Shown here: positions 46,587-56,990 of the stretch, one piece after another | How the letters are laid out: each line of letters begins with the position of its first letter | Position numbering within the stretch: the stretch's first letter is position 1 | Source: Alphaproteobacteria bacterium | GTDB lineage: Bacteria > Pseudomonadota > Alphaproteobacteria > GCA-2731375 | Assembly (NCBI GenBank): GCA_965232515.1 | Contig: CBDDPY010000002.1 | Coordinates: 128,001-192,000 of the forward strand | Length of the DNA stretch: 64,000 nucleotides | Direction of reading: 5' to 3' | Position numbers and translations under genes: made by a program | The notes under the pieces: model-generated | The model's database searches: none | What the model was told of the DNA's origin: nothing | The model's input: the letters and a program-made list of their open reading frames with translations, nothing else

Positions 46587-46590
<4 letters not shown>
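45775..46590 (+). CDS. NAD-dependent epimerase/dehydratase family, uronate dehydrogenase-like
   Basis: TGAAGDIG, RLSDI, FASSNHAIG, RPDSRYGLSKAFGE, IRIG, YGASDN..WWDN...LGYKP. Confidence 0.85.
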
Positions 46591-48314
<1,724 letters not shown>

Positions 48315-48331: not shown

Positions 48332-49582
48332 TTAGGTCAAGGTCGTCGCCAACTGCGCCAATCCCAGCGGGACGGACAGAAGATCGTCGGCGCTGCCGAC
48401 CATAGGGGCGGCTGGCGCTGCCCGTCCGATTGCGGCGCTGACGGCTGGCACGCGGCTCGAACCGCCGGTGAGAAAGATCGCATCGATATCGGTCGGAGTA
48501 AGGCCCGCCGCCGCGACGCATGCGCTCGCCGTCTCGCGCAGCCGATACGTCATGGCGTCGATGGCACGGTCGAACTCGGCGCGCGTCGCAGGCGCCGAGA
48601 GGCCGGCCTCGAGAAACGCGAGAGGCATGGACGTACAGTCCTCGGCGCTCAAGGCGATTTTGGCGCTCTCTACCGCGAACGCCAGGCGATGGCCGAGCCG
48701 TTGGCGCACAACGTGGAGAAGGCGTTTCACTTTTTCCGGCTCGCGCGCCTGAGAGACCAGCCTTGCGAGTTCGCGCTCATTCTTGTGGGTATAGGCGAAG
48801 TTGACCGTCGCCCAGTGCGCAAGCTCGTTATAGGGCGAGATCGGCATCGGCAGCTCTTTCTCGTTAAGCCGAGTGCCAAGGCCAAGCAGTGGCATCACCG
48901 CCTTGAGGCTGAGGGCCGTGTCGAAGTCGGTGCCGCCCAGGCGCACGCCGGCGGTCGCGAGCACGTCTTGTTCGCGATCGGCGCGGTCGCGCACCGGCGG
49001 ACTGACACGGACGATTGAAAAGTCGCTTGTGCCGCCGCCGATGTCGGCGACGAGCACGAGTTCCTCTCGCTCTACCGTCTGTTCGTAGCGTTGGACGGCC
49101 GCGATCGGCTCATACACGAAGACGATGTCGCGAAAGCCCGCCTGTCTGGCAATGCCTTCGAGCACCTCCTGGGCTCGCGCGTCAGCCCGGTCATCGTCGT
49201 CGAAGCGCACCTGCCGGCCATGCACGACAGCCGTGATTTCCTGTCCGGCGAACGCTTCGGCCCTGTGCTTCAGATGCCGCACGAATATCTCGACGACCTT
49301 CGTGAGCGGCAGTCCGCGGCCGCCGACGCCGGCTTTCTCGTCAATCAGGCTAGAGCCCAGGATCGACTTCAGCGCCCGCATCAGTCGGCCATCGATCTGC
49401 GCGACATAGGCGGCGATGGCCTCATTGCCGAACAGCACGCGATTTTCTGTTTCGTCGTCGAAAAAGATTGCGCTCGGTATCAAGGTGCTCTTCGCCTCGA
49501 CCGGCGCCAACGCGGCGGTCCCGTTACAGGCGATGCCGATCGCCGAGTTCGACGTCCCGAAATCCAATCCGCAAGCGATCAT
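48332..49582 (-). CDS. Hsp70-family actin-like ATPase lacking the substrate-binding domain (YegD-like)
   Basis: GLDFGTSNS, GRLMRALKSILG, EPIAA, DIGGGTSDF, GGTDFD, LTGGSS; about 416 aa. Confidence 0.88.
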   Translation of the reverse strand: MIACGLDFGTSNSAIGIACNGTAALAPVEAKSTLIPSAIFFDDETENRVLFGNEAIAAYVAQIDGRLMRALKSILGSSLIDEKAGVGGRGLPLTKVVEIFVRHLKHRAEAFAGQEITAVVHGRQVRFDDDDRADARAQEVLEGIARQAGFRDIVFVYEPIAAVQRYEQTVEREELVLVADIGGGTSDFSIVRVSPPVRDRADREQDVLATAGVRLGGTDFDTALSLKAVMPLLGLGTRLNEKELPMPISPYNELAHWATVNFAYTHKNERELARLVSQAREPEKVKRLLHVVRQRLGHRLAFAVESAKIALSAEDCTSMPLAFLEAGLSAPATRAEFDRAIDAMTYRLRETASACVAAAGLTPTDIDAIFLTGGSSRVPAVSAAIGRAAPAAPMVGSADDLLSVPLGLAQLATTLT

Positions 49583-49677
49583 CACGGTCCCCTTTCAAAT
49601 TCGAAGGGGATCTCATTTATTGCGATATGGAAGGCGTTGCCAGACTGTTTCTTTTTCCCTAAACTCCGTCACGACAG

Positions 49678-49710
49678 GGGCATGCGCGGCAATCGCGCAC
49701 GCCCTTTTTT
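49678..49710 (+). terminator. Intrinsic terminator-like hairpin with U-tract
   Basis: gggcatgcgcg-gcaat-cgcgcacgccc followed by tttttt. Confidence 0.55.
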
Positions 49711-49817
49711 GTGGACGCGATCTAAGCGTTACCGGCGAACGTCCCCGCCATTCCGCGACCCCGCCGCGCGGAAACCGCTTCCGGCGACATCAGGCATTTT
49801 GGGTCAGTCGCAATGGA

Positions 49818-50062
49818 CTGGCACCGGACGGCTGCATCATCAAGCCGAGCGCGGCCAGCGACGAATTGCTGAAGCACACCGGGCGCGCCGTCGTGTTCCG
49901 CGACTACAACGACATGGCTGCACGGCTCGACGCCGACGACCTCCACGTCACGCCGGACTCGATGCTGGTGCTGCAGAACTGCGGGCCGCTCGGCGGACCG
50001 TGCATGCCGGAATGGGGCATGCTGCTGATCCCGAAGAAGCTCCTGAAGCAAGGCGTGCGCGA
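49818..50062 (+). pseudogene. Internal fragment of an IlvD/Edd dehydratase gene, diverged copy of 47742-47986
   Basis: 245-bp gap-free alignment, 26 mismatches by hand count (about 89% identity); lacks both ends of the gene. Confidence 0.9.
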
Positions 50063-50315
50063 AGATGGTTCGAATAAGGTCGGGTCATGCAAGCTGGCCT
50101 CCGATGCCAGCAACCAGCTTGAACCACATCTCAACCCTTCCGGGAATCTCCTTTCAATTCCATCAAGACCGGAAACGCTCTGGTAGCGGCATTAGAGTGC
50201 CAATTGATGAAATGTTATCTCGTGCAGATAGGTGAGCTTTATGCCCATGATTGTTGTGGTCCTATGTACTCAATCCCTTTTTATGTTGCTACTAGCTCGC
50301 AGATTTCGCCATACT

Positions 50316-50882
50316 TCACACGGTTGCATTCACCAATTCCTGAATGCCACTGCTTCGCTCCTCTCGAAGGTCGATGTATCTAAGCCCTCGCAAGTCGTAT
50401 GGCATCTCGCCGTCTGATACCAGAACTGGAATTATCCGCAATCCCTTTGCCCGTGCGATTTCGAGCTCCAGGTCCAAGCTCGGCGTTGCCTGTTTAGACA
50501 ATAAGGCAACGAATGCATCTGACTGATCAATACCCTTCTTGATAGTGTTAAGAATGGGCTGGCCTGGTTCGAGCCTCTCCTGATCCAACCATACGCGTGC
50601 GCCACTCGAACGAAGTGCTTCGGCGATTTCATGTGCAATCGCCTCATCGGTATGCGAATAAGAAACAAAAACACGTCGAGAGAGCCTAAGCTTCATCGCT
50701 AAGCGACTAAGCGTCATGCTAAACACGCCGGCCAAGACGCCCACGGCTAGCGAGAATATCGAAATAAACAACTCGGATACTCCGAGACTCTTTCCAAGTA
50801 TGGCGAGAATAGCCGCTCCCGACGCAACGGTTCCGAGTACCGCAAGAACGGCGGTTGTGCGTGTAATGATCTGGCGGTTCAT
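50316..50882 (-). CDS. TIR-domain protein with two N-terminal transmembrane helices
   Basis: Two hydrophobic segments, then RVFVSYSHTD, VWLDQERLEPG, IKKGIDQSDAFVALLS, DLELEIA, IIPVL, LRGLRYIDL (TIR_2-like). Confidence 0.88.
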   Translation of the reverse strand: MNRQIITRTTAVLAVLGTVASGAAILAILGKSLGVSELFISIFSLAVGVLAGVFSMTLSRLAMKLRLSRRVFVSYSHTDEAIAHEIAEALRSSGARVWLDQERLEPGQPILNTIKKGIDQSDAFVALLSKQATPSLDLELEIARAKGLRIIPVLVSDGEMPYDLRGLRYIDLREERSSGIQELVNATV

Positions 50883-51364
50883 TGCGTTGCTCCCGCCATT
50901 ACGGCTATCAGAGCCAAAATGCCAAAGCCGAGGGGGATCGCAATTCCGACCACGGCAGTCATCTCAGTCTCAGTCTTCCAACCCCACTTACGAACCACAG
51001 TGGACACGCTCCAAAGACCAATGAACAAGAGCGCTATCAACCAGCCGGCTAAAGCCAACCTGCCCGACAAGAGCTGCACTTGCCCTTGTAGAGTTGCAAC
51101 TCTTGCTGAATCGATTGGGATGGCTGCTACGACTTCCGCCAGCTCGTGGTTGGCATCGATGAGAGCCAGGGCCCTGTCGGTCGTAAGGACTACGAACATC
51201 AGGCCAGCGGTGAGCATCAACTCAAGTCCCACGGCGATGTCTTCCTTTCGGAAGGACGTGTACCTATCGTTTCGAGTAGCACATTTCACCGCGATCCCGA
51301 GTGCTGCACTGCCGACGGGGAAAGCTGCGTACCTAAAGAAGGGACTTGCTAGGAATTCTTCCAT
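50879..51364 (-). CDS. Uncharacterised four-TM membrane protein coupled to the TIR gene
   Basis: 161 aa with four hydrophobic segments; its stop overlaps the TIR start (ATGA). Confidence 0.78.
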   Translation of the reverse strand: MEEFLASPFFRYAAFPVGSAALGIAVKCATRNDRYTSFRKEDIAVGLELMLTAGLMFVVLTTDRALALIDANHELAEVVAAIPIDSARVATLQGQVQLLSGRLALAGWLIALLFIGLWSVSTVVRKWGWKTETEMTAVVGIAIPLGFGILALIAVMAGATQ

Positions 51365-51747
51365 GTCAGGCTCGGCGGAAATGCGACACTGCGATCGACA
51401 TATAACATTGCCTGATCTTTACATCACCCGAATCGAATATTCCGAGTAACGCCGTGCTTGTACTCTACCAAATTTAGATTTTAGTGTATATCGGGTCGCG
51501 CCTCAATCTCTGAGGCTGCGCGCTATCCAACTTTTGCTTGGGGTTGTTAAGGCGGACTTATGTTGAGATTTGATGCCACTTTCAAATCTTAGTCTGAGGG
51601 TCGACAGTGTCATAGCCCGCTACAGATTGGCGCGAGCCGTTCCCCGTTAGAAACAGCGTTTAATGGCCGGAAGACCTCAAGCCGATGTTTGTCAACCGCA
51701 GAGAGTTGATGGAAGCTCGGTATCGGTGCAGCTCAATCATTGCCGTC

Positions 51748-53331
51748 TCACCCCGCGCTGACCTTGGCCCAGGGCGACATCACGAAGGAGGCGCCGCTGC
51801 TGCGGCCGGCGTTCATGTCGCGGCCGACGGCGTTGGGGCAGGCGTAGAGCGCGGGGTAGACGCCGTGGGTCGCCGGCTCGGCATTGAAGCGACTGCTCAG
51901 GGCCGCGATCACGTCGGTCGGTAGCGAGGCGTCGATGCTGACGAGGTCCGTCCCGCTGACGTCGACGCGGCCGGTGTGGAACGCGCCGTCCATGTCCATG
52001 CCGTAGTCGGTCAGGAACGAGACGAGCTGGAACACGGCCGGCAGGATGCGCCGGCCGCCCGAGCCGCCGACCGCGAAGCGGAAGCCGTCCCCGCGGTCGA
52101 CGATGGTCGGACACATGTTCGACAAGGGCCTGACGCCGGGACGGAGCGAATTCGGGCCGCCGGGCCGCGGGTCGAACCACATGATGCCGTTGTTCATCGT
52201 GATGCCGGTCTGCGGCAGCACCACCTTGGAGCCGAACACCGACAGCAGCGTCTGGGTCAACGCCACCAGATTGCCTTCCGCGTCGACCACGCTCAGATGC
52301 GTGGTGCAGGACGGATCGGCCGCGTCGCTGCTGTCGCCCATGGTCGCCAGGCGGTGCGCGTAGGCGTCGAGCAGGCTCTGCGCGTAGGCGGTGTAGGCAG
52401 CGGCGTCGGGCCTGTCGCCCAGACTCATTTTCTCGCTCAGCATGGTGAGTGCGTGCCTCAGCGTCGGGCCGGCCGACAGGCCCGGCGCGGCAAACACCGT
52501 GCCGTTGCCGTGGGCCATCGGATCGGCCTTGGTCACGCGGGCTTCGTAGGACGCGAGATCGTCGTCGGCGATCTTGTTGCCGCCGGCATTCAAGTCGGCG
52601 ACCAGCTTGGCGGCGATCTCGCCCTCGTAGAAATCGCGCGGACCGACGTTGGCCAGACGTTTCAGCGTCGCCGCGAGGTTCGTGAGCTGAATGCGGGGCA
52701 GGGGCCCGCCCCATTCGCCAACCGGCGGCACGCCATCCGGCAGATAGATCGATCGGCTGGCCTCGAACCGCGACAGCACCTGGGCGCCCGAGGCGATCTT
52801 CAGCGTCGCGTACCAGTCGACCGGCATACCGGCCTCGGCGCGCTCGATCGCCGGCGCCAGCGACTCGGCCCAGCTCCGCGTGCCGAAGGTTTCGAGCGCC
52901 AGCGAAATCCCGGCGACATAGCCCGGCACGGCGATCGACGGATAGCCGTTGACGTTGCGGTCCTCGACGACGGCCGGCCAGGCGAAAAGGTCCGAGGCCT
53001 GTCCGCCCGCCAGCGGATAGTCGGCCGGGTCGAGGCGCTTGGGCGCCACCATGCCGAACTCGACGGCATGGACATGCGGCTCGCCGACCTTGCCGATCAG
53101 CATGAAACCGCCGCCGCCGAGGCCGCTCATCCAGGGCTCGACCGTGCCGATCGCCAGGCTGGCCGCGACCGCCGCGTCGACCGCGTTGCCGCCGTCGGCC
53201 AGCACCCGCGCGCCAATATCCGACGCGATGTAGTGCTGGCTCGCGACCAGCCCGCCGGCCGACTCGACCGCCGATTTGCGAATGTTCCAGGTCTCCTGAT
53301 AGCGATCGGTGTCCACGCCCGCGCTCCCCAC
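51748..53331 (-). CDS. Gamma-glutamyltransferase family protein
   Basis: GGNAVDAAVA, SGLGGGGF, AVPG, autocleavage site CTTHLSVVD, FGS, NN, GGSGG; no evident signal peptide. Confidence 0.92.
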   Translation of the reverse strand: MGSAGVDTDRYQETWNIRKSAVESAGGLVASQHYIASDIGARVLADGGNAVDAAVAASLAIGTVEPWMSGLGGGGFMLIGKVGEPHVHAVEFGMVAPKRLDPADYPLAGGQASDLFAWPAVVEDRNVNGYPSIAVPGYVAGISLALETFGTRSWAESLAPAIERAEAGMPVDWYATLKIASGAQVLSRFEASRSIYLPDGVPPVGEWGGPLPRIQLTNLAATLKRLANVGPRDFYEGEIAAKLVADLNAGGNKIADDDLASYEARVTKADPMAHGNGTVFAAPGLSAGPTLRHALTMLSEKMSLGDRPDAAAYTAYAQSLLDAYAHRLATMGDSSDAADPSCTTHLSVVDAEGNLVALTQTLLSVFGSKVVLPQTGITMNNGIMWFDPRPGGPNSLRPGVRPLSNMCPTIVDRGDGFRFAVGGSGGRRILPAVFQLVSFLTDYGMDMDGAFHTGRVDVSGTDLVSIDASLPTDVIAALSSRFNAEPATHGVYPALYACPNAVGRDMNAGRSSGASFVMSPWAKVSAG

Positions 53332-53399
53332 TCAAATCATAGCTGCCCTTCTCATATCACAGGCTTCGCCGTTTGCGCTTCCGTGCTAATTTCGGCGCG

Positions 53400-56300
53400 A
53401 TGTATTTCGACCGGCGGCTGTGGGCATTCACCAAGGGCGTGCGGGGTCGGATCTTTGGCGCGGTGGCTGTCGGGCTGCTGTCGGCCGGATTCGGCGTCGC
53501 GCGGTTGGCGCTGCTCGGCTGGCTGCTGGCCAAGCTGTTCGGCGGCGCCAGCCTCGACGACTTGATGCTACCGGCCTTGTTGGTCGCGCTGGCCATGGTG
53601 GTGCGGGGCTGGCTAGAATATTGGCGGACCATGGTTGCGCACCGCACCGCCGCCATCGTCCAGTTGCATCTGCGGCAGCTACTCTACGACAAGGCGGTGG
53701 TGCTGGGGCCGGCGCATTTCGGGCTCGAGCGCACCGGCGACGTGATCAGCTCCATGGTCGAGGGCGTCGAGCAACTCGAAACGTTCTTTGGCCAGTATCT
53801 GCCGCAGCTCTTCGTCTCGGTTCTGACGCCGATCGCTATCTTCGGCTTCGTCGCCTTCCTCGACCTGCCGGTCGCCGCCTTGCTGACAGGCTTTGCCCTG
53901 CTGTCGCTGATCGCGCCGATGGCCTTCCACAGCTGGGACCGCGACAACTCGCTGGCGCGGTCCAAGGCCTACCGGTCATTCGCGGCTGAGTTCCTCGATT
54001 CGGTGCAGGGTCTGGCCACGCTGAAGGCATTCGGGCAGGGACGCGAGCGCGCAAAGGTGCTGGCCGAGAAGGCGCATGACGTGTTCCGCACCACGATGTG
54101 GGTGCTGGGCACCAATACGCTGTCGCGCGGCATCACCGATACCGGCATCGCCGTCGGCGCGGCGGCGACGCTGGCGCTCGGCGCCTATCGCGTCACCGAC
54201 GGCGCCATGTCGCTCGAGGCGCTGCTGATCATCCTGATGATGGGCACGGAAGTGTTCCGGCCGCTGCGCGACCTGCGCACCTATCTGCATCAGGGCATGG
54301 TGGGCGCCTCGGCGGCGCAGGGCATCTACGCCATTCTGGATGCCACGCCGATGATTCCGCCAACGGCCAGTGAGCCCCGCGCGGATCTGGCGCCGACGGT
54401 GACCTTCGAGGACGTGCAGTTCAGCTACCCCGGCGCACGAGGATCAGCGCATAAGGGTCTGAATTTCCATGTTTCCGCCGGCGAGCGGATCGGCATCGTC
54501 GGCCCCAGCGGCGCCGGCAAGTCGTCGATCGTGCGCCTGCTGCAGCGGCTCTACGATCCGCAGGCCGGGCGGGTGCTGCTCGGCGGCGTCGATCTGCGCG
54601 AACTCGGCCTGGCGCAGATCCGCGCGCGTATGGCCGTGGTGAACCAGGACACGTATCTCTTCCACGGCACCGTCGAGGACAATCTGCGGTTCGGAAAGCC
54701 CGATGCCAGTCATCAAGAGTTGGAAGCGGCCGCCCGCGCTGCCAACGCGCATGACTTCATCGAACGCCTGCCGCAGGGCTACCGGACGGTCGTGGGCGAA
54801 CGCGGCATCCGGCTCTCGGGCGGCCAGCGGCAGCGCATCGCCATCGCGCGGGCCCTGCTGCGCGACGCCCCGATCCTGATCCTGGACGAGGCGCTGTCGG
54901 CGGTCGACGCCGAGAACGAGGCGGTGATCCAGGAGGCGCTCAACCGGCTGATGGTCGGCCGCACGACGCTAATCTTCGCCCATCGCCTGTCGAGCGTGAT
55001 CGACGCCGACCGTATCCTCGCCCTGCAGGACGGTCAGATCGTCGAAAGTGGGACGCACGACGAGTTGATGGCGAAGCAGGGCGCCTACTATCGCCTGATG
55101 GCGGCGCAGGCCCAGGACTCGGCCGAGCATCGGGACGATCTGCTGGATGACGCGCGCGAGCGGCGCATCGCCGACGCGCTGCCGGCGCAGACCGACGATG
55201 CGCAGATGGAGCCGACCGACTCCATCCTGCGCGCGGAGGGCATGGGCTGGGGCCGCGCGACCGTCGAGCTGATGCGGCTGATCCTTCCGTGGAAGGGCCA
55301 GATGTCGCTGACCTTCCTGTTCGGAGTCGCCCGCGTCGTCGCCTATATCGGCGTCGGCGTGTTCAGCGCGCTCATCGTCGCCGCGGTGAAGGGCGGCGAG
55401 CCGTTCGGCTGGCTGCTGCTGGCGCTGGCGATCACGGCGCCGCTCGCCGGCCTGCTGCACTGGTTCGAATCCTGGCTCGCGCACGACATGGCATTCCGGC
55501 TGCTGGCCGAGTTACGGGTGGCGCTATTCGACAAGCTGGAGGGCCTGGCGCCAGCCTATCTGCTGCGCCGCCGCACGGGCGATCTGACGGCGATGGCGAC
55601 GCAGGACGTCGAGACGGTCGAATACTTCTTCGCCCATACCGTGGCGCCGGCGTTCGTGGCGGTGCTGGTGCCGGGCGTCGTGCTGGCGACGCTGGTCGCC
55701 TTCGGCTGGCCCATGGCCGCGGCCTTGCTGCCGTTCCTGGCCCTGGTCGCGCTCAGCCCCGTGGTGATGCGCCATCGCATCGACGTGCTCGGCTCGCGGG
55801 CGCGCGAGGCGCTCGGCGACCTCAACGCGCATGCCGTCGACACTATTCAGGGCCTGAGCGAGATCGCCGCCTTTCAGCAGGAGGCGGCGCGGCGCGACGA
55901 GTTCACCCAGCGCATCGAACGGCACCACCGGCTGCGGCTGCCGTTCTTCCGGGACCTGACGATCCAGACGGCGTTGCTCGAGGCCGCGACCGGCCTCGGC
56001 GGCCTCGCGGTCATCGTCGCCGGCGCGTACCTGATCGACAGCGGCGCCGTGACGTCAAGCATCCTGCCGCTGCTGACTCTGTTGGCCATGTCGGCCTTCC
56101 TGCCGGTCTCCGAGATCGCCCATATCGGCCGGCAGCTTGCCGACACCCTGGGCTCGACCCGACGTCTCTACGCCGTGCACAACGAGCCCGTGACCATCAC
56201 CGACGGGCCGGGCGCGCCGGCGGGCTCCGGTTCCGGCGGCGTCTCGCTGGAACTTGAAGACGTCGATTTCGCATATCAGGGCACGACGCGCCGGGCCCTG

Positions 56301-56990
56301 CACGGTGTGAGTTTCGAGGTGCCGGCCGGCCGGACTGTCGCGCTCGTCGGCCCGTCAGGGGCCGGCAAGACCACCATCGCCCACATGCTGATGCGGTTCT
56401 GGGACCCAGCATCGGGCGTGGTGCGCCTGGACGGCCACGACCTGCGCGATTACCGCGCCGACGATTTGCGCCAGCATGTGGCGCTGGTCTCACAGGACAC
56501 GTTCCTGTTCAACGATACGCTGAAGGCCAACATCCTGATCGCCAGGCCGGAGGCTGGCGACGACGAGATCATGCAGGCGCTACAGCGCGCCTCGCTGGAA
56601 GACTTCGTGTCGGCGTTGCCCGACGGCCTCGACACCCGCGTCGGCGAGCGCGGCATGCGCCTCTCGGGCGGCCAGCGACAGCGCGTCGCCATTGCGCGTG
56701 CCGTGCTGCGTGACGCGCCGGTGCTGATCCTCGACGAAGCGACGTCGCATCTCGACGCGGTAAACGAGCAGGCCGTGCGTCATGCGCTCGAGGAACTGAT
56801 GGCCGACCGGACCACCGTCGTCATCGCGCATCGTTTATCGACCGTGCGCAACGCGAATCTGATCGTCGCGCTGGACGAGGGCCGCGTCGCCGAGACCGGC
56901 ACGCACACCGAGCTGCTGGCGCGCGGCGGCCTCTACGCGCAACTCGTGGCCCGGCAACTGGGCGGCAGCGCCGCGTCGGCCGCCGAGTAA
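53400..56990 (+). CDS. Full-length ABC exporter, TMD-NBD-TMD-NBD (CydD-CydC-like fusion)
   Basis: Two TMDs (YLPQL, FLDSVQGLATLKAFG; AHDMAFRLL) and two NBDs with GPSGAGK, LSGGQRQR, LILDEA and AHRLS. ATG 53400. Confidence 0.9.
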   Translation: MYFDRRLWAFTKGVRGRIFGAVAVGLLSAGFGVARLALLGWLLAKLFGGASLDDLMLPALLVALAMVVRGWLEYWRTMVAHRTAAIVQLHLRQLLYDKAVVLGPAHFGLERTGDVISSMVEGVEQLETFFGQYLPQLFVSVLTPIAIFGFVAFLDLPVAALLTGFALLSLIAPMAFHSWDRDNSLARSKAYRSFAAEFLDSVQGLATLKAFGQGRERAKVLAEKAHDVFRTTMWVLGTNTLSRGITDTGIAVGAAATLALGAYRVTDGAMSLEALLIILMMGTEVFRPLRDLRTYLHQGMVGASAAQGIYAILDATPMIPPTASEPRADLAPTVTFEDVQFSYPGARGSAHKGLNFHVSAGERIGIVGPSGAGKSSIVRLLQRLYDPQAGRVLLGGVDLRELGLAQIRARMAVVNQDTYLFHGTVEDNLRFGKPDASHQELEAAARAANAHDFIERLPQGYRTVVGERGIRLSGGQRQRIAIARALLRDAPILILDEALSAVDAENEAVIQEALNRLMVGRTTLIFAHRLSSVIDADRILALQDGQIVESGTHDELMAKQGAYYRLMAAQAQDSAEHRDDLLDDARERRIADALPAQTDDAQMEPTDSILRAEGMGWGRATVELMRLILPWKGQMSLTFLFGVARVVAYIGVGVFSALIVAAVKGGEPFGWLLLALAITAPLAGLLHWFESWLAHDMAFRLLAELRVALFDKLEGLAPAYLLRRRTGDLTAMATQDVETVEYFFAHTVAPAFVAVLVPGVVLATLVAFGWPMAAALLPFLALVALSPVVMRHRIDVLGSRAREALGDLNAHAVDTIQGLSEIAAFQQEAARRDEFTQRIERHHRLRLPFFRDLTIQTALLEAATGLGGLAVIVAGAYLIDSGAVTSSILPLLTLLAMSAFLPVSEIAHIGRQLADTLGSTRRLYAVHNEPVTITDGPGAPAGSGSGGVSLELEDVDFAYQGTTRRALHGVSFEVPAGRTVALVGPSGAGKTTIAHMLMRFWDPASGVVRLDGHDLRDYRADDLRQHVALVSQDTFLFNDTLKANILIARPEAGDDEIMQALQRASLEDFVSALPDGLDTRVGERGMRLSGGQRQRVAIARAVLRDAPVLILDEATSHLDAVNEQAVRHALEELMADRTTVVIAHRLSTVRNANLIVALDEGRVAETGTHTELLARGGLYAQLVARQLGGSAASAAE

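Follow-up and report, generated by a model that had tools for sequence, protein, structure and literature searches.

A conserved gene pair encoding a four-transmembrane protein and a membrane-anchored TIR protein is a probable defence module carried by an alphaproteobacterial genome

We analyzed a 64,000-nt stretch of the genome of an Alphaproteobacteria bacterium (GenBank assembly GCA_965232515.1, contig CBDDPY010000002.1, positions 128,001 to 192,000 of the forward strand; hereafter the window), in which two small overlapping genes encode a protein with four transmembrane (TM) segments (the 4-TM protein, gene 1) and a protein with two TM helices followed by a TIR domain (the 2TM-TIR protein, gene 2). 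This module is real and conserved, and it is probably defensive. The reading that we prefer, to which we assign a probability of about 0.45, is that the two genes would form a mobile anti-phage abortive-infection cassette with a Thoeris-like logic, in which both proteins would reside in the cytoplasmic membrane, the TIR protein would sense infection and produce the signal, and the effector would be the 4-TM protein. The original prediction, which was made from the DNA sequence of the window, had proposed a defence or signalling module at the membrane. The conserved pairing of the genes, their foreign character, the retained glutamate of the TIR domain and the defence-related or mobile neighbours found at other loci speak for that proposal; the roles of sensor and effector and the mutual binding of the two proteins, which it also envisaged, are putative.

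According to the listing of open reading frames (ORFs), both genes lie on the reverse strand, gene 1 at 50879..51364 (161 aa) and gene 2 at 50316..50882 (188 aa). They share the 4 nt at 50879..50882 (reverse strand), where stop and start codons overlap as ATGA (read as ...caATGAacc...), which agrees with the translational coupling that had been predicted. To examine the pair elsewhere, loci with a 4-TM gene were collected from genomes (11), IMG/VR (1) and metagenomes (40); L011, a match of 34 residues, was dropped, leaving 51 loci (10 + 1 + 40). All six frames of these 51 loci were searched with a hidden Markov model (HMM) of 2TM-TIR partners. The HMM was built from alignment A2, so L001-L010 match it by construction and L020-L059 constitute the independent test. 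A 2TM-TIR gene was found directly downstream of the 4-TM gene and on the same strand in 45 of the 51 loci, and in 43 of the 44 loci that have at least 300 nt of downstream sequence; after removal of four near-duplicate loci from these 44, about 39 of 40 are paired. In most matches the HMM also covered the 2TM part of the partner. Five of the six loci lacking a TIR match have less than 250 nt downstream, and the sixth is L008, a locus of a Calditrichaceae metagenome-assembled genome (MAG). The partner encoded there (L008:6451-7131) keeps the 2-TM N-terminus, with TPR repeats in place of the TIR domain, and is the sole non-TIR partner that was seen. In two near-identical metagenome contigs (L029:1105-1676 and L030:879-1447), the TIR gene is split over two frames at about residue 112, through either a frameshift or an assembly error.

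The two genes are tightly joined at the loci collected. When the start codon nearest to the upstream stop was chosen, all 45 junctions between 4-TM and TIR genes measured from -10 to +4 nt, and 24 of the 45 were the -4 ATGA overlap that is found in the window. Their histories are also correlated, as the distance matrices of the 4-TM and TIR proteins gave a Mantel r of 0.84 over 34 pairs (truncated and duplicate loci being left out), a value that none of 2000 permutations reached. The 4-TM protein is the more conserved of the two in 40/40 comparisons to the locus in the window; of 561 pairwise comparisons, 559 show the same. The two genes are thus a conserved and co-inherited unit, and the co-occurrence elsewhere on which the original prediction depended is borne out. 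We also considered a TIR system of one gene beside which the 4-TM gene lies without any relation to it, and rejected this idea because the 43/44 pairing and the co-inheritance contradict it. A complex prediction for the 4-TM and 2TM-TIR proteins (alignments A1 and A2), run without controls, scored 0.19 against a mark of 0.32, which is not evidence either way.

The assignment of gene 2 as a membrane-anchored TIR protein with a glutamate at the catalytic position is well founded. Its TM segments (residues 11-29 and 38-56) are strongly hydrophobic and are followed by a TIR domain at about residues 69-188, of which residues 71-183 match the Pfam family TIR_2 (PF13676, E = 1e-26). In profile alignments, Glu139, which is the first E of DLELE, falls in the column where AbTIR-type and Cat1 chains carry the glutamate of their W...E motif. 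Glu139 is kept in all 41 TIR partners that cover this column, and G107, E139 and P152 are invariant across the 39-sequence TIR alignment A3, while G52 in the second TM helix is present in 46/46 sequences. The tryptophan that usually stands before the glutamate is absent from gene 2, as had been noted: four positions before Glu139 gene 2 has Ser, and among the 41 partners covering the column 18 have W at this position, 11 have N, 4 have F and 2 have S. The helix alphaC had been described as shortened, which is true only in part. In the AlphaFold2 model of gene 2 (predicted local distance difference test score, pLDDT, 84), which has a compact TIR domain, alphaC itself comprises 12 residues (134-145), and it is instead the betaD-alphaE region (155-175) that is reduced and modelled mostly as coil. 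The nearest solved relatives in the PDB by profile are Cat1, AbTIR-type chains, PdTIR, TcpB and SARM1, and the nearest by Foldseek are the TIR-APAZ protein of SPARTA and the TIR domain of SARM1. A single-sequence search with gene 2 returned only 7 relatives compared with 71 for the 4-TM protein, so the TIR protein diverges faster.

The four TM segments that had been predicted for gene 1 are supported by both hydropathy and structure modelling. The hydrophobic 19-mers are at residues 12-30 (Kyte-Doolittle value of 1.25, the weakest), 43-61 (2.14), 103-121 (2.11) and 138-156 (2.59), and the AlphaFold2 model (pLDDT 81) has helices at 8-29, 45-80, 86-127 and 137-159. It follows from the helices 45-80 and 86-127 that the stretch of about 40 aa between TM2 and TM3, which had been taken for a loop, is modelled as a helical hairpin that continues both TM helices. 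Within the family, this hairpin (64-105) is the least conserved region (0.32), carries indels and varies in length. Conservation is highest in the loops at 30-44 (TRND..F.KED, 0.73) and 125-136 (RKWGW, 0.63), and the residues P16, N32, D33, E41, D42, G46, S121, R125, G128, W129, G140, P144 and G148 are invariant. The 71 relatives of gene 1 in a database clustered at 90% are mostly exactly 161 aa long; a profile search of the family returned 314 cluster representatives at 50% identity, and the lengths of family members lie mainly at 135-148 aa or 155-162 aa, a few members having 167-175 aa. Longer relatives of 299-2000 aa were absent from the search, which is weak evidence, and no fusion of the 4-TM protein with a TIR domain was seen in the representative library. 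That library does contain one variant of 327 aa (P0110), in which the hairpin is a coiled coil of much greater length and an IPT/TIG domain (E = 6e-7) lies between the RRWGW motif and TM4.

The 4-TM protein could not be placed in a described family. PADLOC models do not match it, which supports the original prediction, nor do those of NCBIfam, and the Pfam scan (E<=1) returned DUF2721 and E1-E2_ATPase alone, each below its cut-off. DUF2721 (PF11026) is likewise a family of small multi-pass membrane proteins, and some homologues of the 4-TM protein carry a precomputed DUF2721 match. Membership was rejected, however, as gene 1 scored 24.1 bits (23.5 in the genome search) against a cut-off of 28.3, and an hhalign profile comparison with a genuine DUF2721 protein encoded by a relative gave a probability of 0.4%. 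Foldseek found nothing in the PDB at E<=0.001 for the 4-TM model, and VIA-align retrieved generic helical hairpins with a best Z of 9.2 versus the approximately 13 expected for helical models, so that no fold was assigned. In the ESM Atlas the nearest cluster is an unnamed one of 161-aa "hypothetical protein" sequences that is labelled "Uroviricota".

The cassette is foreign to its host genome and was acquired horizontally, as indicated by its low G+C content and the lack of a match among relatives. In 400-nt windows the G+C fraction is 0.485-0.560 across about 50000-51799 and 0.615-0.73 in the flanks, in agreement with the original prediction, and the low-G+C islet measures approximately 1.6 kb. 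No DNA match to the segment 50191-51752 was found among 30 relatives; the flanking genes were found in many of these 30, in differing arrangements. Besides the two genes, the islet comprises a non-coding low-G+C region upstream of gene 1 (51365..51747, reverse strand), which presumably holds the promoter, and a non-coding low-G+C tail 3' of gene 2 (50187..50315, reverse strand), both delimited by G+C content and sequence. Two sigma-70-like sites occur upstream of gene 1 (51613-51586 and 51506-51478), a number that is not above chance (1.2 +/- 1.0 in shuffled sequences), and no terminator-like site was found in 50187-50315.

A gene-fragment scar beside the islet had also been predicted, and it is real, because both a dehydratase fragment and the end of a multicopy element are seen there; it looks like a pseudogene fragment joined to an insertion-sequence end. 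The fragment (49818..50075, forward strand, 258 nt) is internal to a paralogue of a dihydroxy-acid/6-phosphogluconate dehydratase and is 88% identical to 47742-47998 (G000:C2:175742-175998). The latter lies inside an intact ILVD_EDD dehydratase gene (46587-48311, with ILVD_EDD_N and ILV_EDD_C domains) only 2 kb away, and the ORF at 49416..50186 shows the translation of the fragment. Weaker further copies of the fragment are present elsewhere in the same genome. Next to it, and forming the border of the islet, is a remnant of about 130 nt (50054..50186, no strand assigned), probably an insertion-sequence end, which has 78% identity to an element occupying at least 7 places in the related genome G008, where several copies coincide with the end of a contig. 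Two of the G008 copies are identical until the point aligned to about 50186 and diverge beyond it. Convincing direct or inverted repeats bounding the islet were not found. On its upstream side, the islet adjoins a gamma-glutamyltranspeptidase gene that ends at 51748; past its opposite border are an Hsp70-like gene and the intact dehydratase gene, and an ABC transporter is also among the flanking genes. The islet thus contains only the two genes amid housekeeping flanks, and a SIR2/SLOG, Macro, nucleotide cyclase, STING or Argonaute partner is missing from it, as originally stated. Unrelated to the cassette, a 1205-aa ORF at 53373-56990 fuses two ABC_membrane and ABC_tran halves in one polypeptide.

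The distribution of the cassette is wide and patchy, and the family is rare. By record titles, its carriers are Blastocatellia, other Acidobacteriota, a Deltaproteobacteria MAG, Thiocapsa, an "Enterobacterales" MAG, Vibrio salilacus, Calditrichaceae, Leadbetterella and Priestia megaterium, and Acidobacteriota, Deltaproteobacteria, Gammaproteobacteria, Bacteroidota, Calditrichota and Bacillota are represented in the 4-TM family, as is a viral contig. A search of 400 other genomes from the phylum to which the host of the window belongs gave one weak partial match, and in the family that includes the Priestia carrier (22 genomes) the carrier alone was positive and the other 21 were negative. The scan of IMG/VR yielded one locus (L020), and the cassette had no match in 72,556 plasmid records or, by tblastn, in 50,697 phage records. 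No locus of Bacillus cereus or Psychrilyobacter was seen in a scan of genome contigs, which used one peptide pattern and is weak evidence.

At other loci the pair is accompanied by genes of defence systems or mobile elements. A TIR-Mrr_cat fusion follows the pair immediately at L002 (L002:7189-8055), and a complete SPARTA system does so at L058 (L058:4001-8029; TIR-APAZ, E = 2.7e-132, and short prokaryotic Argonaute, pAgo, E = 2.1e-193, by PADLOC). Other neighbours are SocA_Panacea and DUF4145 proteins (L003), a DUF6602 protein with an IS1595 transposase (L005), a Fic protein (L007), Hypoth_Ymh, DUF3800 and Shedu SduA proteins (L009), an FRG domain protein (L010), a large serine recombinase (L025) and a type IV DinG (L056). 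A separate TIR protein of 340 aa is encoded about 1.2 kb upstream of the pair at L047 (L047:491-1510), and it is the only sequence in this analysis that matches the PADLOC TIR-TM model (PDLC03016, E = 4e-9). On the IMG/VR viral contig (L020:4993-11534), the pair lies between a baseplate-hub gene (Phage_BR0599) and host-specificity/tail genes (NlpC/P60 and GTA_TIM), placed like a moron in a tail module that is either gene transfer agent-like or of a prophage. PADLOC analysis of 150 neighbour ORFs pooled from 28 loci gave matches to type I restriction endonuclease, SoFic (one of the 150 ORFs), PD-T7-4, PD-Lambda-3_B, PDC-S15, PDC-S32, PDC-M43B and RtcR-CARF models. When 20 larger neighbours were scanned singly, 16 had no PADLOC match, namely all 10 of one set (from L024, L025, L032, L039, L045, L009 and L003) and 6 of the 10 in the other.

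Systems that combine a TIR protein with a TM effector are already a known kind, represented by Thoeris II, V, VII and X and by the system of phage AC1. In the text of a recent preprint, TM effectors are described for Thoeris types II (TM-Macro), V (ThsF, DUF2270, 3 TM), VII (SLATT) and X (ion channel), and a figure and a table of the preprint list 29 putative effector types, of which 18 are unverified (Yirmiya et al., bioRxiv 10.64898/2025.12.03.692087). As far as that text describes them, Thoeris systems with membrane effectors resemble the cassette in that a two-gene operon encodes a small membrane protein with several passes together with a TIR protein whose catalytic Glu is intact, in that the TIR protein is the faster-evolving partner, as is ThsB relative to ThsA, and in their patchy, horizontally transferred occurrence in defence islands and prophages. 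The cassette shares with Thoeris a TIR domain that has Glu at the catalytic position and a second conserved gene of the same operon that could be the effector. In contrast to the Thoeris proteins, the TIR protein here is anchored by two TM helices, and Macro, DUF2270 and SLATT all fail to match the 4-TM partner (Pfam, E<=1). It thus differs from the type II effector, as the 161-aa protein has no Macro match and is modelled without a soluble domain, and from the type V effector, whose family, DUF2270 (PF10028), it does not match. The comparison with Thoeris covers the text of the preprint, in which the effector of type IX (ThsJ) is not described, and the cassette may be identical to one of the 29 types.

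The P2-like phage AC1 carries a three-gene system of a TIR protein and small TM proteins for which defence was shown and in which, in the sections consulted, the TIR protein was proposed to signal to the TM proteins (Rousset et al., 2022, PMC9122126). It is similar to the cassette in that TIR is encoded together with small TM protein(s) on a mobile element, but it consists, as far as those sections describe it, of three genes (2TM, 1TM and TIR) rather than two (4-TM and 2TM-TIR). Gene 2 has no match to the PADLOC TIR-TM model at E<=1, and its matches to Aga_TIR cover the TIR part only. Judging from its name, the TIR-TM model was presumably derived from the AC1 system, which we take to be Rst_2TM_1TM_TIR of DefenseFinder. 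Among the PADLOC models, PDC-S66 (PDLC05062) appears to be the closest to the TIR core of gene 2. It matched most of the TIR partners (the scan comprised 75 sequences, among them 36 TIR partners, and 35 sequences matched; best E of 2.7e-19), but in gene 2 the match is partial and comprises 61 residues of the TIR core (profile positions 151-212 of 282, E = 5.6e-10), and PDC-S66 is an unvalidated candidate that is merely listed in the literature. The TIR proteins of SPARTA, CBASS (TIR-SAVED), Pycsar and type III CRISPR Cat1 share the TIR fold and the catalytic Glu and include the nearest solved structures; the cassette, however, has no Argonaute/APAZ, CD-NTase, cyclase, SAVED or CARF partner. 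In particular, the 188-aa gene 2 lacks APAZ and the islet lacks pAgo, and the SPARTA of L058 is a separate, complete system. Text searches of the literature, which do not reach supplements and figures, found no description of a 4-TM and 2TM-TIR pair, so that the module is uncharacterized as far as we have checked. A TIR system of E. coli that contains TM segments is mentioned in PMC11350192.

With the preferred Thoeris-like reading, the 2TM-anchored TIR protein would be a fast-evolving infection sensor and an NAD+-consuming enzyme. Upon activation, its TIR domains would cluster and either make an ADP-ribose-derived signal or act directly via the TM anchor. The highly conserved 4-TM partner, once switched on, would oligomerize and breach or depolarize the membrane, which would stop phage replication, and its invariant loops, ..TRND..F.KED.. 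and ..VRKWGW.., may be the cytoplasmic gating or ligand-binding site. In this scheme we infer that the cassette defends, which way the signal runs, that a pore forms, how the proteins sit in the membrane and whether a small molecule carries a signal. We favour the TIR protein as sensor and the 4-TM protein as effector because of the asymmetry in their rates, the invariant motifs of the 4-TM protein for which the TIR protein has no co-invariant surface, the swap of TIR for TPR and the precedent of TM effectors. In that swap, the partner of L008 is read as an exchangeable, sensor-like protein in which the 2-TM anchor was kept. The conserved loops of the 4-TM protein would lie in the cytoplasm, on the same side as the TIR domain, by the positive-inside rule, as lysine and arginine residues counted by eye number 8 in loops 1 and 3 versus 4 in the N-terminus and hairpin.

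Several observations weigh against this reading. The IPT/TIG domain of the distant relative P0110 is inserted in loop 3. In bacteria, IPT/TIG is usually an extracytoplasmic domain, and the insertion therefore points in the direction opposite to the positive-inside rule, for which reason we did not assign a topology. To our knowledge, known ThsB proteins are soluble, and a membrane anchor on the TIR protein is no less compatible with a complex assembled beforehand, or with TIR as the effector, than with a signal that diffuses. The TIR structures nearest to gene 2 are those of NADase effectors (SPARTA TIR and SARM1 by Foldseek, Cat1 by profile) and not of the signal-making ThsB, and the clade of gene 2 has lost the Trp of the W...E motif. 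No ligand-binding domain was recognized in the 4-TM protein (no SLOG, Macro, SLATT or DUF2270 in the Pfam scan). TPR repeats cannot make a nucleotide signal, so activation at L008 would have to be protein-to-protein. Lastly, the cassette of the window sits amid housekeeping genes and in no defence island.

Some of these points would be accommodated if the roles were reversed, with the 4-TM protein as a sensor or scaffold that responds when phage entry or lysis perturbs the envelope or membrane and brings the tethered TIR protein into clusters; the TIR protein would then kill by NAD+ depletion. Membrane tethering of the TIR protein in every member and its closeness to the NADase effectors SPARTA, SARM1 and Cat1 are in line with this arrangement; the invariant G52 in TM2 of the TIR protein and G46, G140, P144 and G148 of the 4-TM protein are compatible with packing between TM helices. 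The variable hairpin of the 4-TM protein could be a diversifying sensing surface, the IPT/TIG insertion of P0110 hints at outward-facing loops, and the 2025 Thoeris preprint cautions that in TIR operons lacking verification the TIR protein may itself be the effector and deplete NAD+. The supposed sensor would then be the slower-evolving partner in all 40 and in 559 of the 561 comparisons, however, and the TIR protein offers no invariant juxtamembrane motif to match those of the 4-TM protein, since its invariant residues other than G52 belong to the TIR core. Moreover, L008 would have replaced the supposed effector with TPR repeats, which include no killing domain. We regard this reversal as unlikely, although it is the strongest of the alternatives.

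An all-membrane TIR module, in which a constant 4-TM pore or effector would be pre-assembled with an exchangeable 2TM-anchored sensor (mostly TIR, once TPR), is in our judgement a doubtful explanation. TIR activation and effector gating would take place inside one membrane complex without a freely diffusing second messenger, which would suit the anchor of the TIR protein. Such a module would represent, in bacteria, an equivalent of the receptor-proximal TIR signalling that occurs at membranes, and it might monitor phage genome entry or membrane lesions. Least likely, and in our view improbable, is a role outside defence, as an addiction or toxin-antitoxin-like pair of a mobile element or as an NAD-linked module of the membrane that serves signalling or stress and is carried along in variable genomic regions: the housekeeping flanks in the window, the several loci that have no recognizable defence neighbour (with 16 of the 20 singly scanned neighbours PADLOC-negative) and the small size and tight coupling, which are typical of toxin-antitoxin pairs as well, would agree with it, but a defence cassette is what is usually signalled by a catalytically intact TIR domain in an operon of two genes, a patchy spread across phyla, the insertion in the L020 tail module and repeated proximity to Shedu, SPARTA, SoFic and TIR-Mrr, and the absence of the pair from the plasmid and phage records searched argues against plasmid addiction.

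TIR enzymes are an immune currency common to bacteria, plants and animals, and with each new pairing of TIR with an effector, a signal molecule or a mechanism of killing that was new has come to light to date. The novelty of the present cassette is the pairing of a membrane-anchored TIR protein with a very conserved 4-TM protein that has no above-threshold match in Pfam, PADLOC or NCBIfam and no structural match. If the cassette is already among the putative types of 2025, the locus in the window is a well-documented member with defined borders. If the cassette defends, it would add a Thoeris-like type that is compact, at about 350 aa in total, and it would provide a model for how TIR activation is coupled to membrane damage and for tethering as opposed to diffusion of a signal.

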